Assembly (NCBI GenBank): GCA_963810095.1
Contig: CAWEMM010000006.1
Span: 1,568,001 to 1,632,000, forward strand
Direction of reading: 5' to 3'
Source of the DNA: an uncultured Chloroflexia bacterium
Lineage (GTDB): Bacteria; Chloroflexota; Anaerolineae; CG2-30-64-16
Length of the DNA: 64,000 nt
The translations under genes and the position numbers were made by a program. The notes under the pieces were generated by a model. The model saw nothing but the letters and a program-made list of their open reading frames with translations. It had not been told where the DNA came from and did not search any database. How positions within the stretch are numbered: position 1 is the first letter of the stretch; each line of letters opens with the position of its first letter. Below, one piece after another: positions 8,148 through 48,179 of the stretch.

Positions 8148-8183
8148 GACCGCAAAGAGTATTACAGACTCTTTGCGGTCTTT
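8148..8183 (+). terminator. Hairpin / possible intrinsic terminator
   Basis: GACCGCAAAGAGT-attacag-ACTCTTTGCGGTC followed by TTT. Confidence 0.5.
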
Positions 8184-8213
8184 ACTCTAAGCTTCCTCTG
8201 CTAGGGAGGGAGC

Positions 8214-10216: not shown

Positions 10217-10225
10217 GAGCCTGCC

Positions 10226-11784: not shown

Positions 11785-11804
11785 GTTCCGACAGAGAAGC
11801 GAGG

Positions 11805-11854
11805 AGAAACCAGGCTTCGTGCGAGCTTCGCTCGCTTCGAGAAACCTGGTTTCT
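11805..11854. repeat. Paired AGAAACCNGGTTTCT-type palindromic repeat
   Basis: AGAAACCAGGCTTC at 11805 and AGAAACCTGGTTTCT at 11840; related pairs at 20760-20791 and 21950-22000. Confidence 0.7.
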
Positions 11855-12017
11855 GCGCGGTTCCGGCCTCTCACTGCGGCTGACGCACGTCATTGCATCG
11901 CGGGCGCAAACACGTTACACTCTTTCCGTTTGACTAACTGCAGTCGTTCCGTCACGGGCCAGGCGCGGCAGCGCCCGGCCAAACCCGGAACGGAACAACA
12001 AAGGAGATGGACTAATC

Positions 12018-13463
12018 ATGGCTGACGTTCCTTCTTACGATGTCGTGGTGATTGGCGGCGGACCCGGCGGCTACGTTGCAGCGATTCGTGCCGCCCAGCT
12101 CGGTCAAAAGGTGGCCGTGGTGGAACGTGAGTTCCTGGGGGGCGTCTGCCTCAATATCGGCTGCATCCCGACCAAGTCGCTCTTGCGGAACGCGGAGCTG
12201 GCGAACATCCTGACCGGCGAGAGCAAGGATTTCGGGTTCAGCTTCGAGAACTTGTCGCTCGATTACGGCGTGGCGCAGAAGCGCAGCCGCCAGGTTAGCG
12301 ACCGGCTGGTCAAGGGCGTCGGCTTCCTGATGCGCAAGAACAAGATCGACGTGTACCAGGGGACGGCGACGCTCAAGTCGGCCAAGCAGATCGAAGTGAA
12401 GGCGACGGCCGAGGCGCCCGCGGTAAACGGCCAGAAATACGACGGGCTGATTGAAGCGAAGAACATCATCATCGCAACCGGGCACCATCCCCGCTCCCTG
12501 CCGGGCATGGCGCCCGACGGCAAGCGCATCATCACTTACCGCGAGGCCTTGTTCCTGACCACCGCGCCGAAGCGCATCGTCGTGGTCGGCGCGGGGGCGA
12601 TCGGCATGGAGTTTGCCTACGTGTTCCGGGCGTACGGGGCCGAAGTCACCGTGATCGAAATGCTGCCCCACGTGCTGCCGCTGGAGGACGAGGAGACGGC
12701 CGCCGAGGTCGCAAAGGCATTCAAGAAGCAGGGCATCAAGGCCCTGGTGAACACCCGGACGGAGGCGATCGAGCCGGCGGGCGAGGGCGTGCGGGTGCGC
12801 GTGAAGGACCAGGGGACCAGCGCCGAGCAGACTATCGAGGCGGACATGGTGCTGGTCGCCGTCGGCGTGGCGCCGAACACGGAAGGCATTGGGCTGGAAG
12901 CGGCGGGCGTACAGACGGACAAGCGTGGGTTTATCACGGTCGACGAGCAATTGCGAACCAACGTGCCGGGCGTCTATGCGATCGGCGACGTGACGGGCAA
13001 GCTGCTGTTGGCCCACGTGGCGAGCGCACAGGGCATCGTCGCGGCTGAGACCATTGCCGGCCACGAGACGCGGCCGCTCAAGGACGCGGACTATGCCTTC
13101 ATGCCCCGCTGTACTTACTGCAAGCCGCAGGTCGCTTCGATGGGCTACACCGAGGCGCAGGCCCGCGAGAAGGGGTATGAGCTCAAGATCGGCAAGTTCC
13201 CCTTTGTGGCTAACGGCAAGGCCCTGGGGTTGAATGAGAAGGAAGGGTTCGTCAAGATCATCGCGGACGCGAAGTACGGCGAAATCCTCGGCGCGCACAT
13301 GGTGGGCCCGGAGGTCACCGAGCTGCTGCCCGAGATGGTGCTGGCCCGGACGTGGGAGCTGACGACCGAAGAGATCGCGCGGACGGTCCACGCACACCCG
13401 ACCCTCTCCGAGGCGCTGATGGAAGCCGCTCACGCCGTCGAGGGCCAGGCAATTCACATTTAG
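12018..13463 (+). CDS. lpdA: Dihydrolipoyl dehydrogenase E3
   Basis: GGGPGGY, GGVCLNIGCIPTK redox disulfide, GAGAIG, HAHPTLSE. Confidence 0.95.
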   Translation: MADVPSYDVVVIGGGPGGYVAAIRAAQLGQKVAVVEREFLGGVCLNIGCIPTKSLLRNAELANILTGESKDFGFSFENLSLDYGVAQKRSRQVSDRLVKGVGFLMRKNKIDVYQGTATLKSAKQIEVKATAEAPAVNGQKYDGLIEAKNIIIATGHHPRSLPGMAPDGKRIITYREALFLTTAPKRIVVVGAGAIGMEFAYVFRAYGAEVTVIEMLPHVLPLEDEETAAEVAKAFKKQGIKALVNTRTEAIEPAGEGVRVRVKDQGTSAEQTIEADMVLVAVGVAPNTEGIGLEAAGVQTDKRGFITVDEQLRTNVPGVYAIGDVTGKLLLAHVASAQGIVAAETIAGHETRPLKDADYAFMPRCTYCKPQVASMGYTEAQAREKGYELKIGKFPFVANGKALGLNEKEGFVKIIADAKYGEILGAHMVGPEVTELLPEMVLARTWELTTEEIARTVHAHPTLSEALMEAAHAVEGQAIHI

Positions 13464-33571: not shown

Positions 33572-34850
33572 ATGGTCGTGGCCGAGAAGCCGGCGAAGCA
33601 GGACCTCTGGGACACCGTGCTCGGCTCGCTTGACGACGTCGCAGCGCGGTTGCACCTGGACCCGGGCATCCACGCCATCCTGCGCGAGCCCGAACGCGAG
33701 TTGACGGTAGCCGTTCCGGTCGTCATGGACGACGGCTCGATCAAGGTTTTCAAGGGCTACCGCGTCCAGCACTCCTCGGCTCGTGGGCCGTGCAAGGGCG
33801 GCATCCGCTACCATCCCGACGTCAACCTCAACGAGGTCAAGGGCCTGGCGGCCATGATGACCTGGAAGTGCGCGGTGGTGAACATCCCCTACGGCGGCGG
33901 CAAGGGCGGCATCCAGGTCGACCCGACCGGCATGTCGCAGGGCGAACTGGCGCGCATGACCCGCCGGTTCACGGCGATGATCCTGCCGATCCTCGGCGCC
34001 AAGCGCGACATCCCCGCGCCCGACGTCAACACGAACGCGCAGGTGATGGCGTGGATGGCCGACACGGCCTCGATGATCGAAGGCACGCAGATGCTCGAGA
34101 TCGTCACCGGCAAGCCGCTGAACATGGGCGGCTCGAAGGGCCGCAAGGAAGCGACCGGCCGCGGCGTCGCGATCTGCACCGGCGAACTGCTGCGTCGCGA
34201 GGGCAAGCCGCTGTCGGAGACGACGGTGGCGGTTCAGGGCTACGGCAACGTCGGCTCCTATGCGGCCACGCATCCTGCACGAGATGGGCGCCAAGGTCGT
34301 GGCGGTCAGCGACGTCAGCGGCGGCATCTACAACCCGGATGGGCTGGACCTGCCGGCCGTCGACAGCGCGGTGAACGCGCACCCGCGCCGCCTGCTCGAA
34401 GGCTACACGGCGCGCGACGTCGAGCGCATCAACAACGAAGAACTGCTCGAGACGAAGGTCGACGTGCTGATCCCCGCGGCGCTGGAGCACCAGATCCGCG
34501 GCGACAACGCGGACAAGCTCCATGCCCGCTACATCGTCGAAGGCGCGAACGGTCCCACGACGCGCGAGGCCGACGAAATCCTGCACGAGAAGGGCGTGAT
34601 CGTCGTGCCCGACATCCTCGCCAATGCCGGCGGCGTGGCTGTCAGCTACCTCGAATGGGTGCAGAATCTGCAGAACTTCTACTGGGAAGAGGACGAGATC
34701 AACCAGCGGCTGACGAGCATCATGAAGCAGAGCTTCGCCGGCGTATGGGATTATGCGCAGGCGCAGGACGTCCCGATGCGGCTGGGCGCGCTGATGCTGG
34801 CCGTCGACAAGGTGGCCGAGGCCGTGCAGCAGCGGGGCATTTGGCCCTGA
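33572..34850 (+). CDS. gdhA: Glutamate dehydrogenase, copy 2 (frameshift ~34268)
   Basis: GPCKGGIRYHP, MTWK, GGGKGG, DIPAPD, GYGNVG, EGANGP, NAGGVAVSYLEW. Confidence 0.88.
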
Positions 34851-35020
34851 GCCGGCGTGTAGGCACGGGCAGGAGGGCGAAGTGGCCCGGCTTGTGCCAA
34901 TGACACACTACGTGGTTCCCGGTTGAGGTGACCAGGCTTGCCGACAAAGCAAAACGTGACGCCGCCAGCGTTGCACAGGAAGTGAGCAGGGCGCACGCAA
35001 ACCGTTGACCTGATAGAAGT

Positions 35021-35062
35021 TCATGAGGGGGATGCCGCAGCGATGCGACGTCCCCCTCATGA
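35021..35062. terminator. Hairpin at the junction of convergent units
   Basis: TCATGAGGGGGA...TCCCCCTCATGA overlapping the stop of the C25-like gene. Confidence 0.55.
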
Positions 35063-36499
35063 TTTTGCCCGGGTGCTTGCGGGGCCACAGGACAGCCGCA
35101 CGGCGGGATCTCCGAGTACCACGTAGTTTCGGGCATCCCTGTTCTCAGCCCACATGCCGGCGATGGCCCGGCTGTCGTAGGCTTTTCCGGCGGCAATGTC
35201 ATCGAGGTCCTCGGTCAGCAGGGTCGACAGCTCGGCATAGCGCTCATTGAAGTATTCCGTGGCCATCCCGACGGGGAGCCCGGCCGCGAGCAGCATGAGC
35301 GCGCTCTCGAAGGTCGCCAGCTGTGGTCCGGCGTTCGCCTCAAAGAACGAACTGCCCCACGCCCGGTCGATATGTCCAATGACTGCGAGTGCGCCGCCTT
35401 TCGGGTGGCCAAGCACCCGCTGCGCCAGCTTTGACACGAAATCCGTGTCTGCCAGCGCCGCGGCCGGGCGCGTCCTGTCCCGTACAAAGTCGTCGAACTG
35501 CGGCGTTCCGGCGCTGAAGCATCCGAAGTGGAAGAAGATCCGGCCGGCGAGTTGGGCGTCATCTCCCACGTTGCCGGCCGAAAAGTACTGCTCGGGGGGC
35601 ACCGGCCCGCGCCACTCGTTCGGTCCGGGCCAGTCGGCACACAGCAGCGCACCTTGATGCACCGCCTGCCGGGCGTCGCCCCGGGGAAAACACATGCCGT
35701 GGCTCGCACTGAACAGCAGACTCGGGCCGTGTGGATCATGGAGCAAGGACGCCAGCCGGTTGCACGTTGCGTCCCGGCCCGTGACCAGATCGACTGTCCA
35801 CTTTGCGCCCTGGGACTGGTTGAGCTTTTCGGCCAGGGGCCGCATCAGCAGGTCAGTGCTCTGCCGGGTGGCCCGGTCGTCGTCGTTTTGCACCGCGAAG
35901 AAGGTGGCGCGAGGCGGCGCAGTCCTTTCGGCGGTTGCGGCTGCTGCCGCGCTGCCGGCATAGCTGCCGTACTCGGTCGGCGTCTCGAAGTGCAGGCGGC
36001 CTACGGCATATTGCACGTCGAGCTGGTACTGGAATCTGAAGGGGATCTGGCCCGGGTCGCCGACCAGCAGCAGGTAATAGGGCACCTTTTCCGGGTCGGC
36101 GGGCCCAGTCCCCTTGCCCCAGCGGGCCAGAAACCGGCGACTGTCTTCGCCGGGGCGCAGGCCGTCGTCGCCGAAATACTCCCGATAGTGTTCGCCGGCC
36201 TGCCGCTGGCGCATGTCGAGCAGCGGGCGCAGGGCTTCCCGTTTCTCGGCCGCGTTCGGGTCCGCCTGGCTGAAGATGACGCCCCAGCCGGCCTCGGCCA
36301 GGTTGCCGGCGTTTACTCCCGCCTTAACGCCGAGGTGGGTCTCCGTGCGCGCGGCGTAACGTTTCTGCAGCTCGGTCAGGTTAGCTGCAGGCGCCTCGCC
36401 CAGGACGATCCGGGCGAGGTCGCCATCTGCCATCGGCGGCAACGCGTATGTGCCCGTCGAGCCGTCGATCCCGTTGAAGTACAGGAGCTCGTCCGCCAT
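35057..36499 (-). CDS. C25/gingipain-like (clan CD) cysteine peptidase
   Basis: Start MADELLYFNG; YLLLVGDP..IPF, VGRLHF, LFSASHG (His), FGCFSAG (Cys), GGALAVIGH, NYVVLGDPAVRL; no signal peptide. Confidence 0.7.
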   Translation of the reverse strand: MADELLYFNGIDGSTGTYALPPMADGDLARIVLGEAPAANLTELQKRYAARTETHLGVKAGVNAGNLAEAGWGVIFSQADPNAAEKREALRPLLDMRQRQAGEHYREYFGDDGLRPGEDSRRFLARWGKGTGPADPEKVPYYLLLVGDPGQIPFRFQYQLDVQYAVGRLHFETPTEYGSYAGSAAAAATAERTAPPRATFFAVQNDDDRATRQSTDLLMRPLAEKLNQSQGAKWTVDLVTGRDATCNRLASLLHDPHGPSLLFSASHGMCFPRGDARQAVHQGALLCADWPGPNEWRGPVPPEQYFSAGNVGDDAQLAGRIFFHFGCFSAGTPQFDDFVRDRTRPAAALADTDFVSKLAQRVLGHPKGGALAVIGHIDRAWGSSFFEANAGPQLATFESALMLLAAGLPVGMATEYFNERYAELSTLLTEDLDDIAAGKAYDSRAIAGMWAENRDARNYVVLGDPAVRLSCGPASTRAKS

Positions 36500-36500
36500 T

Positions 36501-37343
36501 TCAGCCGCAGCTTGCCGCACGGCGTCGGGCGGCGGCGGTGGCGGCGGCGGATTCTGCCCGCCGCCGCTGCGCGCCGCTGCTGCTCTGACACGAGCCCCCG
36601 ATGTCTTTGCGGTCGCTCTTCGGCGAAATCCAGCCCGCGAACGCGCCGTTCTTCCGTACGGCGATCTGCACGACCCAATAACTGTCGCATGCCGGCTGGA
36701 TTTGCCGGTTGAAGAACCAGGCGCCGTCGGCCTGGCGCACCTGGTCGGCGTTGGCGGCAATGACGTCATACGGGTCCTGCGCGGTGGTCTTGTAGAACTG
36801 GATGTCGAAATACCAGTCCTGCTTGCCCACCTGCGGCTGGCCGTTCCACTGCCACGAGAACGCATTACCATCGTAGCCGACGAGGCGCGGCGCGGGTACG
36901 GGCCCTTTTTGGGCGCTGCCGCTGGCCGCCGGCCTGGCCGTTGCTTTCGGCGCAGCGGCTTTCTTTGGCGTTGGCGTCGTCGTGGCGGCGACCGCCGCGG
37001 CCTTCTTTGGTGTCGACGTCGCCCGGGGAGCGGCCGCCGCTTTCTTGGTCGCGGTCGCAGCCGGCCGTGTCTCGGCCTGGGCGGCTTCACGCGTCGGCGT
37101 GGCCGCGCTCTGGGCGCCCGTGCTGCTCCCTGGCTCCGGTGTGGCCGCCAGTCCCGCTTGCGTTGCTTGCGCCGCCTGCACAGCCACGGCCGTGGGCACG
37201 CCGGTCGGTGGCTCGTTGCTGATCACCTTCGGTTCACTCGTGACCGCCGGCCCGGAAGCTGACGCCGGGCCCGGTCCCGAACTGCACACGCCGAGCAAGA
37301 GCCCCAGAGCCGCCAGGATCAGGATGGTTGTTCGCTTGTTCAC
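36501..37343 (-). CDS. Exported/lipoprotein-like protein with Thr/Ala/Pro-rich stalk and small Trp/Cys-rich C-terminal domain
   Basis: GTG start MNKRTTILILAALGLLLGVC; low-complexity ATPT/KKAA region; FSWQWNG..WYFDIQF..CDSYWVVQIA; overlaps the STAND gene stop. Confidence 0.6.
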   Translation of the reverse strand: MNKRTTILILAALGLLLGVCSSGPGPASASGPAVTSEPKVISNEPPTGVPTAVAVQAAQATQAGLAATPEPGSSTGAQSAATPTREAAQAETRPAATATKKAAAAPRATSTPKKAAAVAATTTPTPKKAAAPKATARPAASGSAQKGPVPAPRLVGYDGNAFSWQWNGQPQVGKQDWYFDIQFYKTTAQDPYDVIAANADQVRQADGAWFFNRQIQPACDSYWVVQIAVRKNGAFAGWISPKSDRKDIGGSCQSSSGAQRRRAESAAATAAARRRAASCG

Positions 37344-40300
37344 TGCGATCCTCCGCCACAGGTTGTTTGTGGTGTCGTACCCTGTTCGTCCCGGCTCGCT
37401 CCTGTCTGCGATGTGCCTGCCTTGCTTCCCAGCCGGTATTGCACACATTCTTCCGCGGTGAGCCCGCACGTGACGCGGGCCAGCGCCAGCCGCTTGAGCT
37501 CGTTCACATCCAACGCATAGAAACGCAACGTTCCGTCTTCACCGGTGCTGACCAGTTGTGTCCCGTCGCCTCCGAAAGCTGCGCCAAAGACGCGGGCCGT
37601 GTGCCCGACGAAGGTCAGCAGCGCGCGGGCGCCGGCCACGTCCCACACCTTGACCGTCCGGTCCCAGCTGGCCGACGCCAGCTGCTTACCATCCGGGCTA
37701 AAGGCAACATCAGTCACCCGGTCCCGGTGCCCCGGCAGAGTTTTCAGTTCTTTGCCGGTCGCCACGTCCCATAGCTTGAGCGTCTGATCGATCCCCACGG
37801 TCGCGACCTGGCGGCCGTCGGGGCTGAAAGCCGCATAGTAGACCTCGCCGGTGTGGCCCTGCAGGGTGTGCAGCAGCCGCCCGGTCGCTGCATCCCAGAT
37901 TCTGGCCGTCTGGTCGGCCGCGGACGTTACGACGAGGCTGCCGTCGGGGCTGAACGCGATGTTGTTAATGCGCCGCTCGTGCCCATTGAGCGTTACTGGG
38001 GGCCCATCCCCGCCTACGTCCAGCACCGCGGCGCTGGCAGAATCGGCAACCGCCAGGCGCACCGGGCAAGCCGCGGACTGCCCACCCGCACAGCCGGCGT
38101 GAAGGGCGACCCCCGTCACAGGGACGTCGTCGGTGAAAGTCGCTCCGACCTGCTGGCCGGTGGTCAGATCCCAGACCCTGGCCGTCCGGTCGTCGCTGCC
38201 CGTCGCCAGCAGCAGGCCACAACCGGCAGAACCCGTTGGGCCGGCACTCGAGTCGTCCCTGCAACTCGAGGCCAGTGCTACCGAGCGAACCCGCAGCTCG
38301 TGCGCCTTCAGGTTGGCGACCAGCCGCCCCGTTTCGGTATCCCAAACCCGAGCGCGGCCGTCCTCGCCGGCGGTCGCCACGAGCTTACCGTCCGGGCTGA
38401 CGGCCAGCGCGTTGACCGGCTGCCCGCCGTGCGGGAGCAGTGTGCGCACTTCTTGAGTCGGCCCAACATTCCATATCTTCGCGACGTTATCCTCCTCCGC
38501 GGTCGCGAGGTGCATGCCGTCGGGGCTAAACGCCACACCCATGAGCCAGCCACGGTTGCCCGCGAGTGTCATTAGCTCGCGGCCAGAACTCACATCCCAG
38601 ATTTTGGCAGTCCGGTCCCAACTCGTCGTGGCGAGGCGCGAACCGTCAGGGCTGAAGGCAATGCCGCGGACCCAGTTCGTGTGGCCGGCCAGCCGCTGCT
38701 CCTCCTGGCCAGATACAGCATCCCAAATGCGGGCAGTCTGGTCCCAGCTCGCCGTAGCCAGCCGCGTGCCGTCGGGGCTGAATGCCACCGCGCTCACCGT
38801 GCTGGCGTGGCCTTTCAACGTGAGCAGCGCCGTGCCGCTGGCGCTGTCCCAGATAATGGCGGTGCCGTCGCGGCTGCCGGTGGCGAGTCGAGAACCGTCC
38901 TGGTTCCACGCCACGCTCCACACCTCGTCGGAGTGCGCAGCCAGCGAGGTCAGCAGGCTGCCGGTCTGGACGTCCCAGATGGCTGCGCGGCCGTCTTGCC
39001 CGCCGGATGCCAGCCGCGTGCCGTCGGGGCTGAACGCCACGCTGAACACGGCCCCTTGATCCGCGGCTGGATCTTGGAGCAGGAGCAGCTGCTGCCCGGT
39101 CGTCGCATCCCACACCCTGACCGTTCCGTCGCCGTAACCGGCCGTCGCGATCTGTGCGCCGTTCGGGCTGTAGTCCACCCCAAAGACCAGCCCCTCATGA
39201 CCCTTGAGCGCGAGCAGCGGCTGGCCGGTAGCTGCGTCCCAGATCTCAGCCGTCCCGTCGGCACTGGCCGTCGCGAGCCGGGAGCCGTCGGGGCTGTAGA
39301 CCACGTCGTGCACCGCGCCCTGGTGGCCGGTCAGCCGGCGCTCGATGCGCGATGCTTCGAGCGAGCGGTGCAGGGCATCTTCCGCTTCCGACGTGTAGTC
39401 GAGGTTCAGGCCGTCGAGCGCAAGGAGCACGCTGGCTTCCGGGTCGCCGTCCAGGTTCGCCAGCGCGGCGGCGGCCAGCTCGCGTGACCGGGAGAGCCCG
39501 GCCTGCCGCCGCGCTTCGCGGGCATTGATGAGCGCCCACGTTGTCAGGCCGATCAGGAGCGCGCCGAGCACGGCAGCGGTCGCGAGCGTGCTGCGGCGCC
39601 GGGCTGCAGCCAACCGGGCCTGGCGCACGCAGGCATCGAAGAACTGCGTTTCGTCTTCGGTCAGGTCCCCCCGATTCATGCGCACAAAGGACTGTGCGGC
39701 CCCCAGCGACTCGCCGCGCAGGAGCTCCCGCTCGGACCGGCCGCCCTTGATCCACGCAGCCGCGGGGCCGGCCAACGGGTTGTGGTAGGTCGTCAGCCAC
39801 TGCGCGTTCGACTGCAGCACGGGTTCGACCAGGCGGTCGTGGGCCAGCTCGTACCAGGTATCACCTCCGCGGACCACGGCCCGAATTACATAGGCGTCGT
39901 TCAGCACGTCGACGGCCGCATTGGGCAAGCCTTCCGTTGCTTTGTCGTCCCGGTAGACCAACCCGCACGTGCGCGCCCCGGTGATCAGGTGCCCTTCAAA
40001 CCAGCTCCGCAACTGGCGTTCGCGCACGCCGGTCTGGCGGACCACCTGCGCCAGTGCCGAGTCGTAGAAACCGGTCAGCGCCTCGTCGACGTCGCCAAAC
40101 TCTTGCACATCTGCGGGGCCGATCTCTTCCTGGCCGTCCTTCAGGCTTCCCCAAAGCTGCCGGCAGACGATTTGCAGGTGAACCGGCTCCACATAATCGC
40201 CTAGGACCTCGCCGCCGAGAGGCCCTGGCGGACTGCTCGTGCGAGCGACCGGCGCGCCTGCGTGCTGGCCGGACTTGCCGGGCTGCGCGCGACGCAGGTT

Positions 40301-41089
40301 GTCGACCAGCGACTCCGCTACGCCCGGGGCGTAGGTGCGCCCGGCGGCCGTAGCCGGCAGGGTGACGGCCTTGAGGGCGCTCTCCCGGTTCAGGCGCTCA
40401 AGCCGGTACCGGGCCCGCAAGCTCTCGGGCAGGATGGGCGCATAGGGCGTGAGCTCGGCGATATAGTCCTCGCGCATGCTGAAGAGCACGTGCAGATCGG
40501 GGTAGGCGTCGAGCAGCGCGGCGACCTGGCGGAAGAAGCCTTCCCGCTGCGTCCAGTGCTCGGGTGAGGTGGTGAACAGCTCTTCGAACTGATCGAAGAC
40601 AAGCAGGGCGTCCGCCGGCGTCTCGACGGCCGGGTCTGCGGGCGGAGCGAGCAGCGGGGTCAGCCCGTCCACGAGCGCCAGCGAGGCGAGCTTCTCGGTC
40701 GGGGTATCCGGTCGTAAGGATAGGAGCGCACTGAGGACGTAGACGTTGGCAGGCGGACGGCCGCGTGCGGGCGTCGAGCCCGGATTGCCAACCGATGCGA
40801 TGGGCAGCACCCGCATCTTCTGATACGTGCGGGGCCGCGGTCCCCGGCCGATTGTCCGGGGTTCGGTCAATTCGGGGATGAGCCCCGCCCGCAGGAGCGA
40901 AGACTTGCCCGCGCCCGACTGGGCAAACAGCAACGAGGCCCGGCGAGCCATCACTAACCCTTCAAGGATGGCCGTTTCCTCGTCGCGGCCGAAGAAGAAC
41001 GCCCGTTCCCCCTGCTCGAAGGCGCGCGGGCCGACGTAGGGGTTGGCGTGCGGCTGGCCGGGGGGCGCGCTTTCAGAAGGACCAGTCAT
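37340..41089 (-). CDS. STAND NTPase (nSTAND1-like) + single TM + 14 WD40 repeats
   Basis: NPYVGPRAF..FFGR, Walker A AQSGAGKSSLLRAG, Walker B LLVFDQFEELF, SMREDY, LQIVC.QLW, ELAHDRL; TM TLATAAVLGALLIGLTTWAL; 14 GH...SPDG...WD units counted. Confidence 0.9.
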   Translation of the reverse strand: MTGPSESAPPGQPHANPYVGPRAFEQGERAFFFGRDEETAILEGLVMARRASLLFAQSGAGKSSLLRAGLIPELTEPRTIGRGPRPRTYQKMRVLPIASVGNPGSTPARGRPPANVYVLSALLSLRPDTPTEKLASLALVDGLTPLLAPPADPAVETPADALLVFDQFEELFTTSPEHWTQREGFFRQVAALLDAYPDLHVLFSMREDYIAELTPYAPILPESLRARYRLERLNRESALKAVTLPATAAGRTYAPGVAESLVDNLRRAQPGKSGQHAGAPVARTSSPPGPLGGEVLGDYVEPVHLQIVCRQLWGSLKDGQEEIGPADVQEFGDVDEALTGFYDSALAQVVRQTGVRERQLRSWFEGHLITGARTCGLVYRDDKATEGLPNAAVDVLNDAYVIRAVVRGGDTWYELAHDRLVEPVLQSNAQWLTTYHNPLAGPAAAWIKGGRSERELLRGESLGAAQSFVRMNRGDLTEDETQFFDACVRQARLAAARRRSTLATAAVLGALLIGLTTWALINAREARRQAGLSRSRELAAAALANLDGDPEASVLLALDGLNLDYTSEAEDALHRSLEASRIERRLTGHQGAVHDVVYSPDGSRLATASADGTAEIWDAATGQPLLALKGHEGLVFGVDYSPNGAQIATAGYGDGTVRVWDATTGQQLLLLQDPAADQGAVFSVAFSPDGTRLASGGQDGRAAIWDVQTGSLLTSLAAHSDEVWSVAWNQDGSRLATGSRDGTAIIWDSASGTALLTLKGHASTVSAVAFSPDGTRLATASWDQTARIWDAVSGQEEQRLAGHTNWVRGIAFSPDGSRLATTSWDRTAKIWDVSSGRELMTLAGNRGWLMGVAFSPDGMHLATAEEDNVAKIWNVGPTQEVRTLLPHGGQPVNALAVSPDGKLVATAGEDGRARVWDTETGRLVANLKAHELRVRSVALASSCRDDSSAGPTGSAGCGLLLATGSDDRTARVWDLTTGQQVGATFTDDVPVTGVALHAGCAGGQSAACPVRLAVADSASAAVLDVGGDGPPVTLNGHERRINNIAFSPDGSLVVTSAADQTARIWDAATGRLLHTLQGHTGEVYYAAFSPDGRQVATVGIDQTLKLWDVATGKELKTLPGHRDRVTDVAFSPDGKQLASASWDRTVKVWDVAGARALLTFVGHTARVFGAAFGGDGTQLVSTGEDGTLRFYALDVNELKRLALARVTCGLTAEECVQYRLGSKAGTSQTGASRDEQGTTPQTTCGGGSQ

Positions 41090-43152
41090 CGCGGCCGGCT
41101 CCGAGGTACGATCGCCAGCGCCCGTGGAGCTCGGCAACGAACTGTGACGGGGTTCCCCAGTAGATGTCGATGCGGTATTGGTCCAGGTATCGAGCGAGGT
41201 ACTTGCGGGCCGCGTTCCGCGTCTGCGGCGTTTGCCATATCCAGTTGCACGCCCACGTGGATCTTTTTGCTGCGGTTGGTCTGGCTGATCGGGCGAATCA
41301 GGCCCTGCAACACGGCCCGAAACTCCCAATCGTCGATATCATACCCGAGGAACAGGAAGCTGTGCTCGGAGAGCATCCGAAGCACGTTCATGGGCATGAT
41401 CGACTCCTGGTCGCGCGACAGCCGTACGAAGTGCTGGAGGTAATCGTCCTCGCTCAGCACCAGGTGCTTGCGTTGATCGTCCTGGTCCGAGCCGCCCAGG
41501 TGGAAGACGACGGGGTTGTCGGGGCTGGGGGCCGGGGTGAGAACCCACTGTGGTGAGCCCGCGGCCGCTTGCTCCCAGCGGGGCCCCACCCGGCGGGCCG
41601 GCCGCCCGCGCTGCTTCAGCGCCTCGAACATAAAGCTGTCGACGTTCGTCGTCATGTACAGGCTCAGGGGGAGATCGGCCAGCAGGTGATGGATCTCGTT
41701 TTCCTGGATCTGCAGCACCTGCTCCGACCAGTTGAGCGCAGCGATGGTATCGCTCAGGCTCGCATCCTTAGCCTGCCGCTTCTGATCGTCCGTCGGCTGG
41801 ACGCCCAGGTAGCCAAATAGGCTGCGCTGGAGCAGGCGCAGGTAGTCCGATACCATGAGGTCGGGATCGTTGACCGCCATAAACTGCATCACCCGGTGCA
41901 GTTGGTTCCGGTCGGACAGCGGATAGCCGTACCGGTCGGCCAGCTTCTGCGCCAGCGCCTCCTCGCTCGACAGGAGCCCCTCGGTCACCCGCGGCCCGAG
42001 GAAGGCAGTGCAAAGGCCCTGGTCGACGTTTTCCAGGAGGAACGGCCAGAAGAGGTCGGCCCGGTCGCTGGTGATGATCCCGCGTTCGCCCAACAGCCGG
42101 CCCGACTGGAGCCGGCTGAAGAGGACGGGGATCGATGCGCCCGGAAGCCGGGCGGTCATAATGGCAGCGCGCGCTTCGTTTGCGGCCAGGTCGGCTTGGC
42201 CGTGCAGCAGGAGCCGCTGGTAGAAGGTGCGGCTGAAGGCGGCCGCGGTCTCCACGGACACCAGGTCTTGCATGGCCAGGACGGCCGGTGCGCCCGCCGC
42301 AACCAACTGGGGCGCCAGGCCGCGAAATGCGTCGGCCGGGCTGCGGGTGGCAGTCTGGCAGCTCGAGAGGTAGACCAGCCGCAGCTTGTCCTCTGTATCC
42401 AACGTGGCGTCTCCGAGCTGCCGCGCGAGCATGGCCGCGATCTCCTCGGCGCGGGCGAGGGTGACCGCATTCCGGTCGTCGGCGAGGTACAGGACCGCGC
42501 CGGTCCGCTCGCTGTAGCTGCCGTGGCCGACGAAGTGAAGGATGTGGCCGCCCTGCTTGAGCGCCGCCTCGATGGCCGGCAGCGTGCAAGGCTGGGGCAA
42601 GGGAACGACCTCGACCGGAAGTCCGTGCGTCGCGTCTGCCAGTGCCGCGCACTCGAGTGCGACGTCCAGGGCAGCCAGCCCGTACTCGGCCAGATTCGCC
42701 GGGTTAGCGACCGCGACGAGAATCCTGATGGGCCGCTTGAGGATAGGACTGCCCGGTTGCCACTGGCCTGCCAGGTAGCGGGAGAAAGGGGTCGCGGCGG
42801 ACGCGCCAATGTCCTGGACCGTGTCGCCGCCAGGGTCGCGCAGCAGCTCCCACGGCACAGTATGCAATTCGGGCGCGGCGGCATCGAGGCGCAGGCGCAG
42901 CCGGCGCCGGGGGGCCCGGCCCCGCACTTCGGCCCATGCGGCCTTGATCCGATCGTCGGCCACCAGGCAGGCGAACAAACGCTCGCCGTCTGCTTTCGGA
43001 TCGTCCCCCTCCACCCAGGGCACCAAGCTGGGTGCGATGAAGCCGCGGCGGTACTCCAACTCACGGTTAAGCGTAAGCTCGACCGGATATCCCTCTACCT
43101 GTCGGGGCAGGATGCGGATTTCCAGGTCTGTGAAGCCGTCGGTGTCGGGCAT
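41073..43152 (-). CDS. CHAT (caspase-like) protease fused to SIR2-like domain (frameshift ~41215)
   Basis: CHAT: VPWELL, ILVAVANP, HFVGHG, LSSCQT, VLAMQ, FSRTFY; SIR2_2-like: AFLGP, YMTTNVD, VFHLGGS, LVLSEDDY, FLFLGY...DWEF; corrected tail IDIYWGTP..F..EL. Confidence 0.85.
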
Positions 43153-43364: not shown

Positions 43365-43402
43365 CTTGCTTGTCGATGTCAACCCGACCAGGAGAGGGGA
43401 AA

Positions 43403-43897
43403 ATGGCGAAGAAGGAAGTGGAAGTCCCGGCGGGCGTGCCTGAGGTGGGGAGCCCGGCGCCCGACTTTGAGCTGAAAAACGACGAGGGGAAGACCGTGCG
43501 GTTGAGTGACCTGCGGGGGAAGCGGGTCGTGCTCTATTTCTATCCGAAGGACGACACCCCAGGCTGCACCACGCAGGCCTGCGGCTTTCGTGACAATTAC
43601 GTGGAGATCCAGGAGCAAAACGCGGTCGTGCTGGGCATCAGCCCGGACGGCGAGAGCAGCCACGCCAAGTTCAAGACCAAGTTCAACCTGCCGTTCACCC
43701 TGCTGGCCGACCCCGAGCATGTCGTCTCAGAGGCTTACGGTGTGTGGCGCGAGAAGAGCATGTACGGCAAAACCTACATGGGCATCGTTCGCTCGCATTT
43801 CGTGATCGACGAGAACGGCAAGGTCGCAGACGTGCGCTACAGCGTCAGCCCGGACGACAGCGTGCAGAGCGCGCTGGCTGCGCTCCGTTTGAGCTGA
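43403..43897 (+). CDS. bcp: Peroxiredoxin BCP/PrxQ
   Basis: LYFYPKDDTPGCTTQAC, GISPD, YMGIVRSHF. Confidence 0.93.
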   Translation: MAKKEVEVPAGVPEVGSPAPDFELKNDEGKTVRLSDLRGKRVVLYFYPKDDTPGCTTQACGFRDNYVEIQEQNAVVLGISPDGESSHAKFKTKFNLPFTLLADPEHVVSEAYGVWREKSMYGKTYMGIVRSHFVIDENGKVADVRYSVSPDDSVQSALAALRLS

Positions 43898-43981: not shown

Positions 43982-45163
43982 CTATACTCTGCCCCGCACC
44001 GCCTGCCCGAAGTGTCGGACCCGGATGCCGGGCCCAGTTGCGCCATAACGGGCACGGAGCCACGTCCGCTCGGGCCAGAGCGTCCGCCCTACGATGCGGG
44101 CAGCATCGCGGCTCCGGTCGACCAGCAGCAGTTGAAATGCAAGGCGCCGGGGCCCGCCTGTCATGTCGCGGCCTTCGAGCATGTAGGTGGTGCCGACGAA
44201 GCGGCGCAGGGCGCGGCGTCGGGCGGGCGGGGGTGCGAGCTTCGCAAGGGCTTTTGCCGCACCCGGCAACCCGAATAGCTCGTTTGCCAGGTCGAGCACC
44301 AGCCAGGTCGCCGTAGCCACCCGCCAAGCGCGCGCCCGCTCGGCCAGGATTGGCCAGTCGATAGCGTCGGTCCGGCTCAACAGGGCCACGTCGAGTAGCG
44401 CCCGGATGCCGGGATAGGCCATCTGGTGATTGACGGCGATGTGCACGGCGGACTGTACGATCGCGTCTTCCGGCGCGAGCGCGGAGGCGGGGCATCCGAG
44501 CACATCCACCTGGCGCACCCGCGCGCGAATGCCTGCGTCGTCGATGGCAGCCGTCCGCCGCACCCATTCGCCGGCAAATATGCCCCAGTGTAACTCGACG
44601 AGACCCGTGCCCGGCGCGGCGCTGATCATCTGTACCTCGCCGCCGGTATGCTGTTGCAGGTCGAGGGGCCGCTCGGGCTTGCGAAGCTCCCGGTAGCCGA
44701 TCGTGCCCAGTGCGGCCCGGGCCGGCGGCATCCCCTCGTGTGTCAGCCACAGGTCCAGGTCGCCCATGGGCCGGCAGGCCGGGTCCGGGTACGCGGTGTA
44801 GGCCAGGGCCGCGCCCTTGAACAGGACGGGCGAGACCCCGGCGTGCGCCAAGCACTCGAGGATGGTGCGGAGCTCGTCGCCGTGCAACTCGGCGTCGGCT
44901 GCCGCCGCGTAATAAGCGCTGCGCAGGGCCTGGGCCAGGGGTGCTGCCAGCGCCCGCGTGCACCCCGCAGTTTTCAGCCGGTGCCACACGAACGGCGCGA
45001 GGGCCAGCCGCGTCAGCCAGTCGGCCCAGGAGGCGTCGGCCCCGCTCTGCGCCCACTCGGCTAGCGCCGGCCCGTCATCCAACAGCCCGCGCAGAAGCCG
45101 CGCTCCGCCCGGGGGCGCCCACCCCGGGGGATGCCAGACGACCGGGTGCTTGGATTTCGCCAT
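43982..45163 (-). CDS. Uncharacterised nucleotidyltransferase (NTP_transf_5-like)
   Basis: VLFKGAALA...Y.....RPMGDLDLW, VELHW, H.AVNH, LLDVA..DW. Confidence 0.75.
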   Translation of the reverse strand: MAKSKHPVVWHPPGWAPPGGARLLRGLLDDGPALAEWAQSGADASWADWLTRLALAPFVWHRLKTAGCTRALAAPLAQALRSAYYAAAADAELHGDELRTILECLAHAGVSPVLFKGAALAYTAYPDPACRPMGDLDLWLTHEGMPPARAALGTIGYRELRKPERPLDLQQHTGGEVQMISAAPGTGLVELHWGIFAGEWVRRTAAIDDAGIRARVRQVDVLGCPASALAPEDAIVQSAVHIAVNHQMAYPGIRALLDVALLSRTDAIDWPILAERARAWRVATATWLVLDLANELFGLPGAAKALAKLAPPPARRRALRRFVGTTYMLEGRDMTGGPRRLAFQLLLVDRSRDAARIVGRTLWPERTWLRARYGATGPGIRVRHFGQAVRGRV

Positions 45164-47109
45164 CAGGAGCGGACCTTCGTCTCGCCGCTGTACTCGGGGA
45201 CCAGGCTGCGCAGCGCGAGGCGCATGCTCTCTTCGTCCTGGCAGTACGCGGCCTCGAGAAGTGATTCGAGGCGGCCGGCCAGCGCATCGCTCGACCCGTC
45301 GAAGGCGCCATGACCGTTCGTGAAGCGCAGGATTTTCTCGTGCTCGGTGCGCCCGTAATGCTCGGACGACGTCAGCAGCTCCTCGTACAGCTTCTCGCCG
45401 GGGCGCAGGCCGGTGAACCGGATCTTGATGTCGCGGTCGGGCTCGAGGCCGGACAGGCGGATCAGGTCGCGCGCCAGGTCGACAATGCGGAGCGGTTCGC
45501 CCATGTCGAGCACGAACACTTCTTCCCCACGCCCCATCGTTGCCGCCTGCAGCACGAGTTGAACCGCTTCGGGGATGGTCATGAAGAAGCGCCGTACCTC
45601 GGGGTGGGTCACGGTGACGGGGCCACCCGCCGCGATTTGCTTTTGGAAGAACGGGACGACGCTGCCCCGGCTGCCGAGCACGTTGCCGAAGCGGACGGCC
45701 ACGTACGCGCAGCCGTGTGTGCGTGCCGATCGCTGGACGATCAGCTCGGCTACCCGCTTGGTTGCGCCCATGATGCTCGTCGGGTTCACGGCCTTGTCGG
45801 TCGAGATGAGTACGAAGTGGGTCACGCCAGCTGCTGCGCTTGCCTCCACCACCCGCAGCGTGCCAAACACGTTGTTCGTGATGGCGTCGGCGATGTTGTC
45901 TTCCATCAGCGGGACGTGCTTGTGCGCGGCAGCATGGAACACGACCTCGGGCCGGTGTTCGGCGAACACCGCACCCAGCCGCTCGGCGAAGCGAACGTCT
46001 GCAATGACGGGGGTAATGACGGGCTGGAGACCGGGAGGACAGGGGGAGTCGGGGCCGGCGAGCTCGGCCCGCAGCTCGTTGTGGATGTCAAAAATCGAGT
46101 TTTCGCCGTGGCCCAACAGGACCAGCGTCGCGGGGCAGCAGCGCAGAATCTGCCGGCAGAGCTCCGACCCGATGGAGCCGCCCGCGCCGGTGACGAGGAC
46201 CCGTTTGCCGTGCAACAGCGCTTCGACGCGTGCCGTGTCGGTGAGAACGGGCTCGCGGCGCAGCAGGTCGTCGATTTGCACGTCGCGCAATTGGTTCAGC
46301 CGGACGTTGCCGCCAAGAATCTCGTAGATGCCCGGCACGATGCGGGCCCGCACGCTGGCCGATTCGCAGATGTCCACGATCTCGCGGATTGTTTTGCCGG
46401 TCGCGCTGGGCATGGCGATGATGACTTGCTCGACGTGGTGCTGACGCACGAACTCGGGGATGGCGTCTCTGCCGCCCAGCACCCGCACACGGTTGAGTAG
46501 CACTCCGTGTTTGGCTGGGTCGTCGTCGACGAAGCCGACGGGGACCAGGCCCATCTGCGGGTTCTGGCGCAGCTCGCGCAGCACCATCGCGCCGGCCTCG
46601 CCCGCACCCACGATGAGGACGTGCTGCAAGGGACCACTGGCCTGGCCCTCCTTCCCCGACCGCTGCGCGTTCAGCGCGCCGGCGCGCAGTGCGAAGCGAG
46701 GCGCTGCGATGACGGCAAAGGTGATGAAGACGCTGATGAGGGGAATGGAGCGCGGCACACCGGGCGCCAGGAGGGCGGGGAAGAAGGCCTGGGCGCCGAG
46801 GAACAGCGCACCTTGTGCCAGCGAGCCAATCGCCGCGGCCCAAACCAGCAGCATCATTTCGTCGTATCCCGCGTACTGCCAGTAGCGGGAGTACAGGCCC
46901 AGGCCGGCGAAGATCGGCAGCATGATGATCGGGGCCGCGATCGCGTAGAGCAGCATGGTCTGCGCGTACGTCTGGATCAGGGCGCTGTCGAGGCGGAGTG
47001 CAAAGGCCAGGATGGCGGCCATCGGGAGGAGCAGCCCGTCGGTGAGGAGCAGGTGCCGGTTGCGCACGCGCAGCAGCAGCCGGGGCAGGGTAAAGGAAAA
47101 TGGTTTCAC
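45163..47109 (-). CDS. capD: CapD/PglF-type nucleoside-diphosphate-sugar 4,6-dehydratase
   Basis: N-terminal TMs, GAGEAG, GAGGSIGSEL, FHAAAHKHVP, ISTDKAVNP..MGATK, RFGNVLGSRGSV, GEKLYEEL. Confidence 0.9.
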   Translation of the reverse strand: MKPFSFTLPRLLLRVRNRHLLLTDGLLLPMAAILAFALRLDSALIQTYAQTMLLYAIAAPIIMLPIFAGLGLYSRYWQYAGYDEMMLLVWAAAIGSLAQGALFLGAQAFFPALLAPGVPRSIPLISVFITFAVIAAPRFALRAGALNAQRSGKEGQASGPLQHVLIVGAGEAGAMVLRELRQNPQMGLVPVGFVDDDPAKHGVLLNRVRVLGGRDAIPEFVRQHHVEQVIIAMPSATGKTIREIVDICESASVRARIVPGIYEILGGNVRLNQLRDVQIDDLLRREPVLTDTARVEALLHGKRVLVTGAGGSIGSELCRQILRCCPATLVLLGHGENSIFDIHNELRAELAGPDSPCPPGLQPVITPVIADVRFAERLGAVFAEHRPEVVFHAAAHKHVPLMEDNIADAITNNVFGTLRVVEASAAAGVTHFVLISTDKAVNPTSIMGATKRVAELIVQRSARTHGCAYVAVRFGNVLGSRGSVVPFFQKQIAAGGPVTVTHPEVRRFFMTIPEAVQLVLQAATMGRGEEVFVLDMGEPLRIVDLARDLIRLSGLEPDRDIKIRFTGLRPGEKLYEELLTSSEHYGRTEHEKILRFTNGHGAFDGSSDALAGRLESLLEAAYCQDEESMRLALRSLVPEYSGETKVRS

Positions 47110-48179
47110 GCGTGCCTTCTCTGGATGCGGCGGCGCGCACGTTCCTGTGCCACAACAGAGTACCACAGGCCGAGCGCCGCAGCGGGAATGGTGAGTGCTA
47201 TCAGGAACGGCGCGGCGGGCAGGTTTGCCAGCCAGGCAAGGCCGAGCCCGCCGCCCAGCGCCGCGAGCGCGGCGTATAACAGCGAAACAGGACCGTGGCC
47301 GTAGCCAAGGATGACCAGCCGCTGGTAAAGATGCGACCGGTGCGCTGCGAAAACGTTCTCGCGGCGTAGGGCCCTTCTGATAAACGTAAACGAGGCGTCG
47401 AAAACAAACGGCCAGACGGCGAGCACGCCAACGACCGCCAGCCGGGGATCGACCTGGGCGGCGGCTACTGCCAGGCTCGCCAGGCTCAGCCCAAGGAATG
47501 CGCTGCCGACGTCGCCCATGAAGATGCGGGCCGGCGACCAGTTGTAGCGCAAGAAGCCGAGGCTCGCGCCCGCGATAATCAGGCCGATCTCCGCCAGGAG
47601 CACGGTCCCGGTGATCCAGCCCGCGGCCGCCCAGGCGAGGCCTGCCACCACGGCCTGCGCCCCGGCGATCCCATCGATCCCATCCATAAAGTTGTAGGCA
47701 TTGGTGAGCCCGGTCAGCCAGAAGAAGGCGAGGACTGCGCCGGCGCCGTACAGGCGCACCGTTCCCGCGATGGGCAGCTCGACCTGCCAGAAGTGCCCCA
47801 GCGCCACGATCACCGCGACGGCCGCGGCGGCATGGACGGCGAAGCGGATGGAGTTGGGCAGCGAGCGAATGTCATCGACCAGGCTGACGGCGGCCACGGC
47901 AGCCCACGCTCCGAGCATCAGCCCGATGGGCAGCCAGCTCGTGACACCGAGCCCGGCAGCCATCACGACGGTCAGGACAAGCGTCACGACGACGATGGCC
48001 AGCCCGCCGCCCCGCGGCACGGGCCGGGTGTGCGAGCTGCGTTCGTTGGGGATGTCGAGCAGACGCTGCGCGGCAAACCGGCGGATGGCTGCCACGCCGG
48101 CCCAGCTGAGCGCGAAGGCAACCACGGTGAGCGCCACGCCGAGGGCCAGAAGCTCGAGCACGTCCCGTTCAGCTAGCAC
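47106..48179 (-). CDS. MraY/WecA-like polyprenyl-phosphate HexNAc-1-P transferase (WbpL type)
   Basis: DIPNERSSH..PRGGG, DD, NAYNFMDGIDG, IFMGDVGS, HRSHLYQRL. Confidence 0.9.
   Translation of the reverse strand: MLAERDVLELLALGVALTVVAFALSWAGVAAIRRFAAQRLLDIPNERSSHTRPVPRGGGLAIVVVTLVLTVVMAAGLGVTSWLPIGLMLGAWAAVAAVSLVDDIRSLPNSIRFAVHAAAAVAVIVALGHFWQVELPIAGTVRLYGAGAVLAFFWLTGLTNAYNFMDGIDGIAGAQAVVAGLAWAAAGWITGTVLLAEIGLIIAGASLGFLRYNWSPARIFMGDVGSAFLGLSLASLAVAAAQVDPRLAVVGVLAVWPFVFDASFTFIRRALRRENVFAAHRSHLYQRLVILGYGHGPVSLLYAALAALGGGLGLAWLANLPAAPFLIALTIPAAALGLWYSVVAQERARRRIQRRHA

Follow-up and report, generated by a model that had tools for sequence, protein, structure and literature searches.

A conserved trio of a CHAT protease, a STAND-WD40 NTPase and a predicted gingipain-fold protease as a candidate conflict module of Chloroflexota and other bacteria

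What are four abutting genes doing together between two housekeeping genes of an uncultured Chloroflexia bacterium, and do all four belong to one system? The window analysed here is a stretch of 64,000 nucleotides (positions 1,568,001 to 1,632,000 of contig CAWEMM010000006.1, forward strand; GenBank assembly GCA_963810095.1) from a metagenome-assembled genome of 6.13 Mb (16 contigs, 88.5% complete). At positions 35057-43152 of the window, between the flanking genes gdh and bcp, it carries four minus-strand open reading frames (ORFs), which we call A to D (Table 1). An earlier note on this DNA, made from its letters alone, described them as a CHAT protease fused to a SIR2-like domain (A), an nSTAND1-type NTPase with one transmembrane helix and 14 WD40 repeats (B), an exported Thr/Pro-rich protein (C) and a C25/gingipain-like protease with His and Cys residues (D). 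It proposed a candidate undescribed defence or conflict operon of four-part layout, in which a sensor resembling the NOD-like receptors (NLRs) triggers two proteases that gate an effector depleting nicotinamide adenine dinucleotide (NAD+). Coordinates, overlaps, flanks and domain assignments were confirmed, save that Pfam delimits 13 WD40 stretches (14 would make two seven-bladed propellers). We found that A, B and D form a conserved three-gene module across several phyla, C being a lineage-specific extra. On balance, we lean towards reading the locus as an accessory STAND/NLR-type conflict module (for immunity or programmed cell death) of these three genes plus the lineage-specific one, working through two proteases.

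The neighbour survey was anchored on D, since CHAT and WD40 proteins have many paralogues. Among the 80 best-scoring of at least 574 D loci, CHAT was encoded near D in 52, nSTAND1 in 51 and SIR2 in 21; 58 loci had CHAT or nSTAND1, 45 had both and 21 had all three. For the 36 loci whose flanks reach at least 8 kb in each direction, the figures were 30 (CHAT), 28 (nSTAND1), 14 (SIR2), 32 (either CHAT or nSTAND1), 26 (both) and 14 (all three). For the 58 loci, the distance from D to the nearest CHAT or nSTAND1 ORF was at most 300 nt in 30 and at most 1 kb in 44, and in 47 this ORF shared the strand of D. By way of background, 5.1% of the window genome (the one genome in which this was measured) is no further than 10 kb from a CHAT or nSTAND1 ORF, and the linkage of A, B and D stands far above this value. 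Co-conservation across genomes, whose lack the earlier note would have taken as a refutation, was recovered for three of its four genes.

Two layouts recur in these loci. The first, found in 19 loci (9 Chloroflexota, 5 Acidobacteriota and 5 others, by record titles), is that of the window, with CHAT and SIR2 in one ORF beside an nSTAND1 gene and D. The second, found in 24 loci (mostly of filamentous cyanobacteria; by title 18 cyanobacteria and 6 others), joins CHAT and nSTAND1 without a break in one ORF next to D, and is devoid of SIR2; Pfam confirmed the fusion in loci L015 and L037, and a Nostoc example of 1591 aa reads CHAT-nSTAND1-WD40. Because CHAT and nSTAND1 are one protein in these 24 loci, A and B would be expected to act together physically, and the fusion is the best evidence here that argues for their joint action. 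A plain descriptive tally of the record titles of all 80 loci is dominated by Chloroflexota, filamentous cyanobacteria and Acidobacteriota, and includes Latescibacterota, a Gemmataceae, Desulfatirhabdium and a Parabeggiatoa, among others.

Closer to the window genome, D was present in nine of 40 relatives (in G010 as a weak partial match only) and in two of the seven genomes of the same genus. CHAT, SIR2 or nSTAND1 was detected by tblastn and confirmed by Pfam at seven of the nine relatives' D loci; tblastn found none of the three in L018 and L019, the D loci of G022 and G017. The arrangements differ from genome to genome: nSTAND1-WD40, a PPC-domain protein, CHAT-SIR2 and D on one strand (G014); CHAT-SIR2, nSTAND1-WD40 and then a convergent D (G002, same genus); D followed by a single CHAT-nSTAND1-propeller-FGE protein (G031); D, nSTAND1-WD40, FGE, SIR2 and a second nSTAND1-WD40 (G015); and CHAT, a TPR protein and D (G001). 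Four relatives encode a full-length CHAT-SIR2 protein; nSTAND1 adjoins it in all four, and all four genomes hold D (adjacent in two, on another contig in the other two).

The cluster is an accessory guest at a housekeeping site: gdh and bcp lie only ~8-365 nt apart in three of the five same-genus genomes searched (G002, G003 and G007). Since the two genes adjoin in these sister species, we regard the 8.3-kb cluster as an insertion; in G002, a copy of the system is found on a contig other than that of its gdh-bcp pair. A further genome of the comparison (G001) was omitted from this count because the orthology of its gdh-like match is doubtful. The G+C content of the cluster region (0.64-0.70) is no different from that of its surroundings. 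Within the cluster, the end of A reaches into the beginning of B and that of B into the beginning of C, and 1 nt separates C from D, hence the four genes look like one operon. The true starts were placed at ATG 41089 (B), GTG 37343 (C, with GGAGGA six bases before) and ATG 36499 (D, backed by an N-terminus conserved across nine homologues). The raw ORF calls were too long for B, C and D, their surplus 5' parts being Arg-rich readings of the other frame of the neighbouring gene, as is usual in G+C-rich DNA.

Does the cluster still work? It could be a decaying remnant or a chance juxtaposition, with A a pseudogene and the four genes not acting together. As assembled, A is indeed frameshifted: its last ~45 codons encode the matching protein only in another frame (the alignment with a CHAT-SIR2 homologue from L013 switches to the next frame at ~41213), and the nSTAND1 genes of a paralogous locus in the same genome and of G002 also appear split between frames. 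However, one letter is missing at 41210 in the contigs of all three public sequencing runs that span this position (X1 and X3, which belong to one study, and X5, which belongs to another), and the neighbouring housekeeping gene gdh is split in the same way (one ORF covers the N-domain and positions 1-54 of the catalytic-domain model, the other frame positions 50-241); on these two grounds we take the frameshift of A for an assembly error. The public contigs were aligned over 40700-41700 at a low depth (2-3.5), and the best-matching run may be the genome's own source sample; the contig of a fourth run (X2) begins at 41211, so it does not bridge 41210. We therefore read gene A as intact, with ~692 aa and a TGA stop at 41073-41075, 17 nt inside B. 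As the linkage of A, B and D lies far over the measured background and their catalytic residues are conserved (see below), we hold a remnant or chance origin to be very improbable. The frame break of gdh, near 34260-34290, points in its own right to indel errors of the genome and not to real pseudogenes.

C is the gene that does not travel with the others. Its N-terminus has a signal-like hydrophobic stretch, then a cysteine and an Ala/Thr/Pro/Lys-rich low-complexity linker, and the protein is possibly a lipoprotein (with a non-canonical lipobox). No Pfam family matched C; its domain of 112 residues (147-258, with two conserved Cys) was modelled by AlphaFold2 at a predicted local distance difference test (pLDDT) value of 95.6, and its best Foldseek matches are fibronectin type III domains, weakly so (E 3e-4, template modelling score ~0.4-0.5). 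The query first used for this domain lacked its first 23 residues, and the domain was re-aligned for the fold model. Among 1.84 billion proteins, only 47 representative clusters matched this domain at E <=1e-3, which makes for a small family, and signal peptides are present in most of the 25 N-termini inspected. We do not count C as a core part because its family was found in one of the 40 relatives (G023, itself without D), in none of 400 sampled genomes of the phylum and, G023 apart, in no other locus collected. Moreover, only 21-109 nt separate the stop of B from the start of D in seven canonical loci of the first layout, which leaves no room for C; a fixed four-part system is therefore not what these loci show.

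The position of C is nonetheless a recurrent one. An exported protein stands behind the sensor gene in six loci (the window, L001, L013, L061, L103 and L105), with differing domains: PPC-domain proteins occur in or near the C position in L013, L105 and L001, and a small lipoprotein in L061, all four with signal peptides, and the C-like gene of G023 lies directly behind the nSTAND1-WD40 gene, as C does in the window. A variable exported partner therefore recurs at the sensor gene, but it is not a core part. The G023 locus (L103, G023:C55, 2659-9351) encodes EAD1-FGE, SIR2_2, nSTAND1-WD40 and an exported protein that joins SH3 to the C domain; it is the only other genomic context found for the C family, and through it the present loci connect with the EAD network that Kaur et al. 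described. The paralogous locus of the window genome (L001, C12:42000-60000) encodes at 4624-12138 a CHAT-FGE/C-type-lectin protein, a stand-alone SIR2_2, nSTAND1 (in two tblastn frames), a 384-aa protein without a Pfam family and the exported PPC-domain protein; D is absent.

D, the anchor of the survey, matches Peptidase_C25 of Pfam barely above the cut-off (24.9 bits vs 23). Its AlphaFold2 model (pLDDT 85, predicted template modelling score 0.88) finds its best Foldseek matches in gingipains R and K (1cvr, E 2.7e-8; 6i9a, E 6.9e-8), followed by separases, the CHAT proteins DdvA and Csx29, and SAVED-CHAT (8tl0). His267-Gly268 and Cys327 are invariant in all ten aligned homologues, and no N-terminal hydrophobic signal segment was detected (the top 19-mer, of Kyte-Doolittle mean 1.56, is internal). 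D is thus predicted, on the strength of its model, to be a cytoplasmic clan CD cysteine protease of gingipain fold. Its family comprises more than 4,290 proteins at E <=1e-3 among 8,000 candidates scored, and at least 574 relatives were confirmed among at least 596 pattern matches, counted in one genome per species; the few that are named among the 120 relatives listed go by 'hypothetical'. The window D is a short form. Long forms (>=580 aa) make up 76 of the 120 closest relatives and end in differing C-terminal extensions (a shared domain of ~150 residues, membrane helices, or TPR-like repeats; L012, 4321-6252, is among the sites concerned); nine of them, scanned against Pfam, gave no domain besides Peptidase_C25. 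In L098 (9703-15120), the D protease domain, DUF4332 and a KAP-family NTPase are joined in one protein of 1805 aa, downstream of a BTAD-AAA-TPR protein.

What would D do? We favour D as the output of the cascade, because it is the only other conserved enzyme in the layout without SIR2, and because of its variable C-terminal extensions (76/120) and its fusion to a KAP NTPase (L098). D could also be a regulator: an upstream maturation protease that primes A or B, or a brake that degrades or sequesters activated CHAT-SIR2, in which version CHAT and SIR2 alone would be the true outputs. Loci with CHAT, SIR2 and nSTAND1 but no adjacent D do exist, and the pair can presumably act alone; D stands at times on the opposite strand (11 of 58 loci; convergent in G002); and its invariant dyad suggests that it acts as a protease. 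Against this, the 24 fusion loci without SIR2 have D as their sole other conserved enzyme, which fits an output, and varying extensions and NTPase fusions are the usual behaviour of effector modules. We judge a regulatory D quite improbable.

The earlier note also suggested the modelling of complexes. A predicted complex of the CHAT part (residues 1-360) with D scored 0.34 (runs 0.01, 0.46 and 0.34), the top value among three controls being 0.00; contacts were shared between the runs to at least 0%, with a partner pLDDT of at least 81. Of 80 solved complexes, 58 attain the mark set for this tool, as do 2 of 110 mismatched pairs; with scores of at most 0.60, only seven of the 80 solved complexes and both mismatches pass it, and such a pass is more often wrong than right. 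We treat the prediction as a weak hint of direct contact, for D as an output and as a regulator alike, and do not count it as showing binding.

The CHAT part of A carries His210-Gly211 and Cys265, which are invariant in all 16 aligned CHAT-SIR2 proteins; with its PF12770 match and this His-Gly/Cys dyad it fits a clan CD CHAT peptidase, so that the catalytic residues of both proteases, pointed out beforehand, are conserved. The SIR2-like part begins directly behind CHAT, with a conserved glycine motif at Gly386, and in the window it retains Gly386, Asn503 and His551, the latter two being what we take to be the catalytic pair by analogy with ThsA. With its Rossmann glycine, Asn and His, the domain bears the motifs of an NADase and is likely to be active as one. 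Across the 16 aligned proteins, Asn is kept in 8, His in 12 and the pair in 8. Asn, His or both are missing from the other 8, in which the CHAT dyad is unchanged, and the SIR2-like domain of these lineages may serve nucleotide binding or as a scaffold rather than as an enzyme. The NAD+-depleting effector of the original proposal hence suits the window and part of the family, and fails for the 24 fusion loci, from which SIR2 is missing, and for the members that have lost the pair.

B joins the NTPase to the repeats across a single strongly hydrophobic segment. Its match to PF20703 (nSTAND1) reaches 122.6 bits against a cut-off of 27.1; only ~16 residues precede the NTPase, and the WD40 stretches lie downstream of the helix. 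Topology was assessed in the 50 nSTAND1 proteins of the D loci that have at least 300 residues beyond the NTPase, with flanks of 15 residues on each side of the helix. A hydrophobic 19-mer (Kyte-Doolittle mean >=1.6) follows the NTPase in 46 of them, and in these 46 the flanks hold on average 5.5 K+R on the N side vs 2.7 on the C side (N side richer in 39 proteins, equal in 5, poorer in 2). By the positive-inside rule, this N-side excess of positive charge would place the NTPase in the cytoplasm and the repeats outside, i.e. in the B family the WD40 sensor is probably extracytoplasmic. The likeness to Avs-type sensors drawn in the earlier note would fail on this point. Locus L104 (G033:C40, 6808-16258) encodes CHAT-SIR2 and, behind it, nSTAND1 twice in tandem (1034 and 1389 aa), which suggests duplication of the sensor within one system.

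An outward sensor brings up a different purpose for the same genes. The module could be a developmental or social device of filamentous bacteria, and not an anti-phage one: the receptor would sense neighbours, non-kin, envelope damage or a secreted signal, and the proteases would bring about local cell death, filament breakage or differentiation. From its probable place outside, the sensor has no access to phage proteins within the cell, the ligands of Avs sensors. The D family is, by record titles, concentrated in filamentous or multicellular groups (Chloroflexota, Nostocales, Oscillatoriales, a Parabeggiatoa), and the nearest named NCBIfam relative of the CHAT part is HetF, of cell division and heterocysts, at 28.8 bits against a cut-off of 1200. 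The WD40 repeats likewise lack, at the DNA level, homogenisation of the kind known from fungal NLRs (Tandem Repeats Finder returned 0 rows for the WD40 region). Nevertheless, the genes are patchily distributed (D in two of seven same-genus genomes), the cluster is inserted in a housekeeping site that is uninterrupted in sister species, and the loci differ in gene order and exchange their effector modules; patchiness, insertion and shuffling are typical of defence islands and not of a developmental core pathway. In addition, EAD1 and FGE/C-type-lectin modules are present in related loci, and in the passages compared Kaur et al. link such modules to counter-invader systems. A developmental role thus seems rather unlikely to us.

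Under the conflict-module reading that we favour, we infer the trigger, the binding between the proteins, the order of cleavage, the NADase activity and the biological role along the following lines. A cue at the cell surface or envelope would bind the WD40 propellers, possibly with C (exported, and therewith on the same side of the membrane as the sensor) as a co-sensor. The NTPase domains would then oligomerise on the inner face of the membrane, and oligomerised B would gather the CHAT domains, which would be activated by proximity in the manner of the apoptosome and caspase-9. Activated CHAT would cleave and activate D, free or activate its own SIR2 NADase, or do both, NAD+ breakdown being added only in proteins such as that of the window. 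Proteolysis and the loss of NAD+ would arrest or kill the cell and spare the rest of the filament or population. More tentatively, and as something possible rather than probable, we picture the system as a transmembrane NLR, in which outward WD40 repeats (with exported partners in some lineages) sense an event at the surface and the STAND NTPase assembles a cascade of two proteases with an optional NADase, the D family supplying the executioner.

Several observations weigh against this account. The 80 loci were fetched through D alone and are not a random sample; the hidden Markov models of the neighbours were built from these same loci (iterated once), and Pfam was used as a check on samples only. 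The background comes from a single genome, and the chance rate may be higher in CHAT-rich cyanobacteria. Neither CHAT nor nSTAND1 is encoded in four of the 36 well-flanked D loci (L098, L092, L042 and L072); according to the Pfam scans made of some neighbours, a kinase-TPR protein stands beside D in L092, and an ABC transporter and an Ig-domain protein in L042, and the single neighbour scanned in L072 had no Pfam match. D is not obligatory either, as it is not adjacent in the paralogous locus of the window genome, in G023, or in the CHAT-SIR2/nSTAND1 loci of G033 and G022. Half of the aligned CHAT-SIR2 family has lost the residues of the SIR2 catalytic pair, and by this alignment NAD+ depletion cannot be the general output. 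The flank charges of the window B are tied (5 vs 5), its topology resting on the trend of the family. Lastly, Pfam finds no EAD or Death-like adaptor domain in A, B or D that would explain recruitment.

How does the locus relate to described systems? A PADLOC scan of the four proteins matched no model for D and, at the level of domains, SAVED_CHAT, ThsA and a repeat model on B for A-C, which amounts to no full system, an outcome that the earlier note would count in favour of novelty; an NCBIfam scan yielded nothing above cut-off. The claim that the system is undescribed may stand for the arrangement, and has to be qualified for the kind, whose closest account is that of Kaur et al. (2020 and 2021) and which was outlined by Kaur et al. 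2021 (PMC8195603), where nSTAND1 is defined. By its domains, the locus is placed within the nSTAND1-type STAND-NTPase conflict network, in an arrangement that is unrecorded in the passages compared. According to these passages, NTPase-FGE proteins of multicellular bacteria bear caspase, TIR and further effectors at the N-terminus, and the systems share with ours a central nSTAND1 NTPase, C-terminal repeats or FGE/lectin sensors (13 WD40 stretches in the window; WD40, other propellers or FGE in the relatives), and caspase-superfamily peptidase and NAD+-processing effectors. They are also said there to prefer multicellular bacteria, and relatives of the window loci carry the EAD1 and FGE known from them. 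The difference lies in the effector or adaptor, which in those passages is fused N-terminally to the NTPase, other effectors bearing the matching adaptors; it is a separate gene in the window and is fused in the 24 CHAT-nSTAND1 loci. Pfam finds no EAD adaptor in A, B, C or D, and EAD1 is present in the related G023 locus. A separate CHAT-SIR2 gene, a gingipain-fold partner or an outward WD40 sensor is absent from the passages compared of both papers by Kaur et al. (PMC8195603 and PMC7159879), whose supplementary tables may list such neighbourhoods; the terms SIR2 and CHAT do not occur in the main text of the 2020 paper (PMC7159879), nor does gingipain in the 2020 and 2021 texts.

The EACC1-caspase systems (Kaur et al. 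2020, System 4, PMC7159879) are, as outlined in the passages compared, two-gene membrane systems whose caspase carries variable C-terminal modules, STAND NTPases included, and nSTAND1 is stated to occur in some of them. They have in common with the present loci an N-terminal caspase-superfamily domain, variable C-terminal modules (STAND NTPases, repeats, nucleotide-utilising domains) and membrane association, and a 3' gene of this build is found in our loci (CHAT then SIR2 in the window, CHAT then nSTAND1-TM-WD40, TM being the transmembrane helix, in the fusion loci). A counterpart of the EACC1 gene was sought and rejected: the 900 nt upstream of A contain no ORF with a transmembrane helix, nor does one recur at this place in 12 related loci. 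The Pfam scans made turned up no EACC1, the small upstream ORFs being outside those scans. The constant partner in the present loci is instead D, a protease of 480 aa.

Avs proteins, some of which are known to have a SIR2 effector, also combine a STAND NTPase, a repeat sensor and a cell-killing effector. Avs and related antiviral STAND proteins (the work of Gao et al. 2022 and Kibby et al. 2023) are reportedly single cytoplasmic polypeptides that bind phage proteins in the cell. The present loci differ from them by a separate effector protein, an NTPase of the nSTAND1 clade and a sensor that lies behind a membrane helix and is probably outside; the PADLOC scan gave no match to Avs models. Gingipains (family C25; PDB 1cvr, 6i9a and 4rbm) share with D the two-subdomain clan CD fold and the His-Cys dyad. 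They act in virulence as secreted enzymes and possess a signal peptide, a pro-domain and, C-terminally, sorting or adhesin domains; D, in contrast, lacks a signal peptide, is 13-14% identical to them, has its own conserved N-terminal motif and sits in a conflict-system context. With Thoeris ThsA and DSR SIR2 proteins, A shares the SIR2_2 domain (PADLOC ThsA models match its SIR2 part only, at 4.8e-8 and 3e-7). A TIR partner is, however, missing here, as are SLOG and any other sensor domain of ThsA, SIR2 is fused behind a CHAT protease, and half of the window-family relatives have lost the catalytic pair.

A working precedent for two proteases in series is reportedly given by the cascade from SAVED-CHAT to PCaspase in type III-B CRISPR (bioRxiv 10.1101/2023.06.23.546230), and TIR-activated caspase-like immunity is reported as well (10.1101/2024.10.24.620036). 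In the type III CRISPR systems Craspase and SAVED-CHAT, a CHAT linked to TPR or SAVED is encoded together with a type III CRISPR effector. A CHAT protease paired with a second caspase-fold protease is common to the SAVED-CHAT cascade and the present loci. Activation in that cascade is CRISPR-dependent and proceeds by cyclic oligoadenylate via SAVED, whereas here it would presumably proceed by STAND oligomerisation; Pfam finds no SAVED, Cas or TIR domain in the four genes, and the PADLOC SAVED_CHAT model matches the CHAT part of A only (1.3e-11, residues 132-323, model positions 101-252 of 498). D is of gingipain fold and not a C14-type caspase. Our literature searches found no paper joining CHAT, SIR2, NTPase and WD40, none joining PF01364 with PF12770, none of an experimental kind on nSTAND1 (as judged by title or abstract), and, among the papers listed on STAND, caspase and cyanobacteria, none with the term 'gingipain-like'.

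The interest of this gene set, widespread and unstudied, lies in D, in the predicted topology and in the breadth of the family. To our knowledge, the bacterial STAND/NLR immune sensors studied so far all act inside the cell; if the sensor here is indeed outside, bacteria could trigger NLR-type cell death from the surface, upon phage adsorption, envelope attack or contact with non-kin. The module would then be a bacterial counterpart of a death receptor and an apoptosome combined, widespread in filamentous bacteria, and D a previously unrecognised family of executioner proteases. The D family, annotated as just 'hypothetical', is the constant partner of CHAT proteases and STAND NTPases, and offers a concrete, testable lead to a possible cascade of caspase-like type in Chloroflexota, Acidobacteriota and filamentous cyanobacteria. 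The fused cyanobacterial form is present in culturable Nostoc strains and is thus open to experiment.

Table 1. Features of the cluster and its flanks (positions in the window).
Feature	Position	Strand	Remarks
Gene A, CHAT + SIR2-like	41073..43152	-	~692 aa once the extra base at ~41210 is removed; as assembled ends at 41086
CHAT domain of A (clan CD, caspase-like), residues 73-334	42151..42936	-	Pfam 1.9e-28
SIR2_2 core of A, residues 498-626	41275..41661	-	Pfam 1.3e-15; by homologue alignment the domain runs from ~365 to the protein end
Extra assembly base, in a run of G on the + strand	41210..41210	.	Shifts the last ~45 codons of A
Gene B, nSTAND1 + one transmembrane helix + WD40, 1249 aa	37340..41089	-	Pfam; ATG 41089 overlaps the end of A
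nSTAND1 NTPase domain of B, Pfam-matched part	40271..41041	-	4.1e-35; P-loop ending GKS, Walker B-like hhhhDQ
Predicted transmembrane helix of B, residues 503-521	39527..39583	-	Mean Kyte-Doolittle 1.97
WD40 region of B, 13 Pfam stretches, likely two propellers	37454..39268	-	Predicted extracytoplasmic from family topology
Gene C, predicted exported protein, 280 aa, lineage-specific accessory	36501..37343	-	Signal peptide, low-complexity linker, FN3-like domain
FN3-like beta-sandwich of C, residues 147-258, two conserved Cys	36570..36905	-	AlphaFold2 + Foldseek
Gene D, predicted gingipain-fold clan CD cysteine protease, 480 aa	35057..36499	-	His267 at 35699-35701, Cys327 at 35519-35521
Flank gdh, glutamate dehydrogenase (ELFV dehydrogenase)	33572..34903	+	Split between two frames near 34260-34290
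Flank bcp-type peroxiredoxin (AhpC/TSA)	43370..43897	+	Divergent from A; 217 nt between

A scan for promoters gave a single promoter-like site, which was assigned to bcp, and the terminator-like sites found lie inside genes. Among the public sequencing runs listed for the region, none was of RNA. In G001 (L101, G001:C24:252000-264500), bcp and the gdh-like match (54% identity, partial) are 9.6 kb apart, and the genes of this interval are unrelated, with no CHAT, SIR2, nSTAND1 or D found among them. Past bcp, the window encodes on the minus strand (43982-47166) an NTP_transf_5 'uncharacterised nucleotidyltransferase' gene and a Polysacc_synt_2 polysaccharide-biosynthesis gene.

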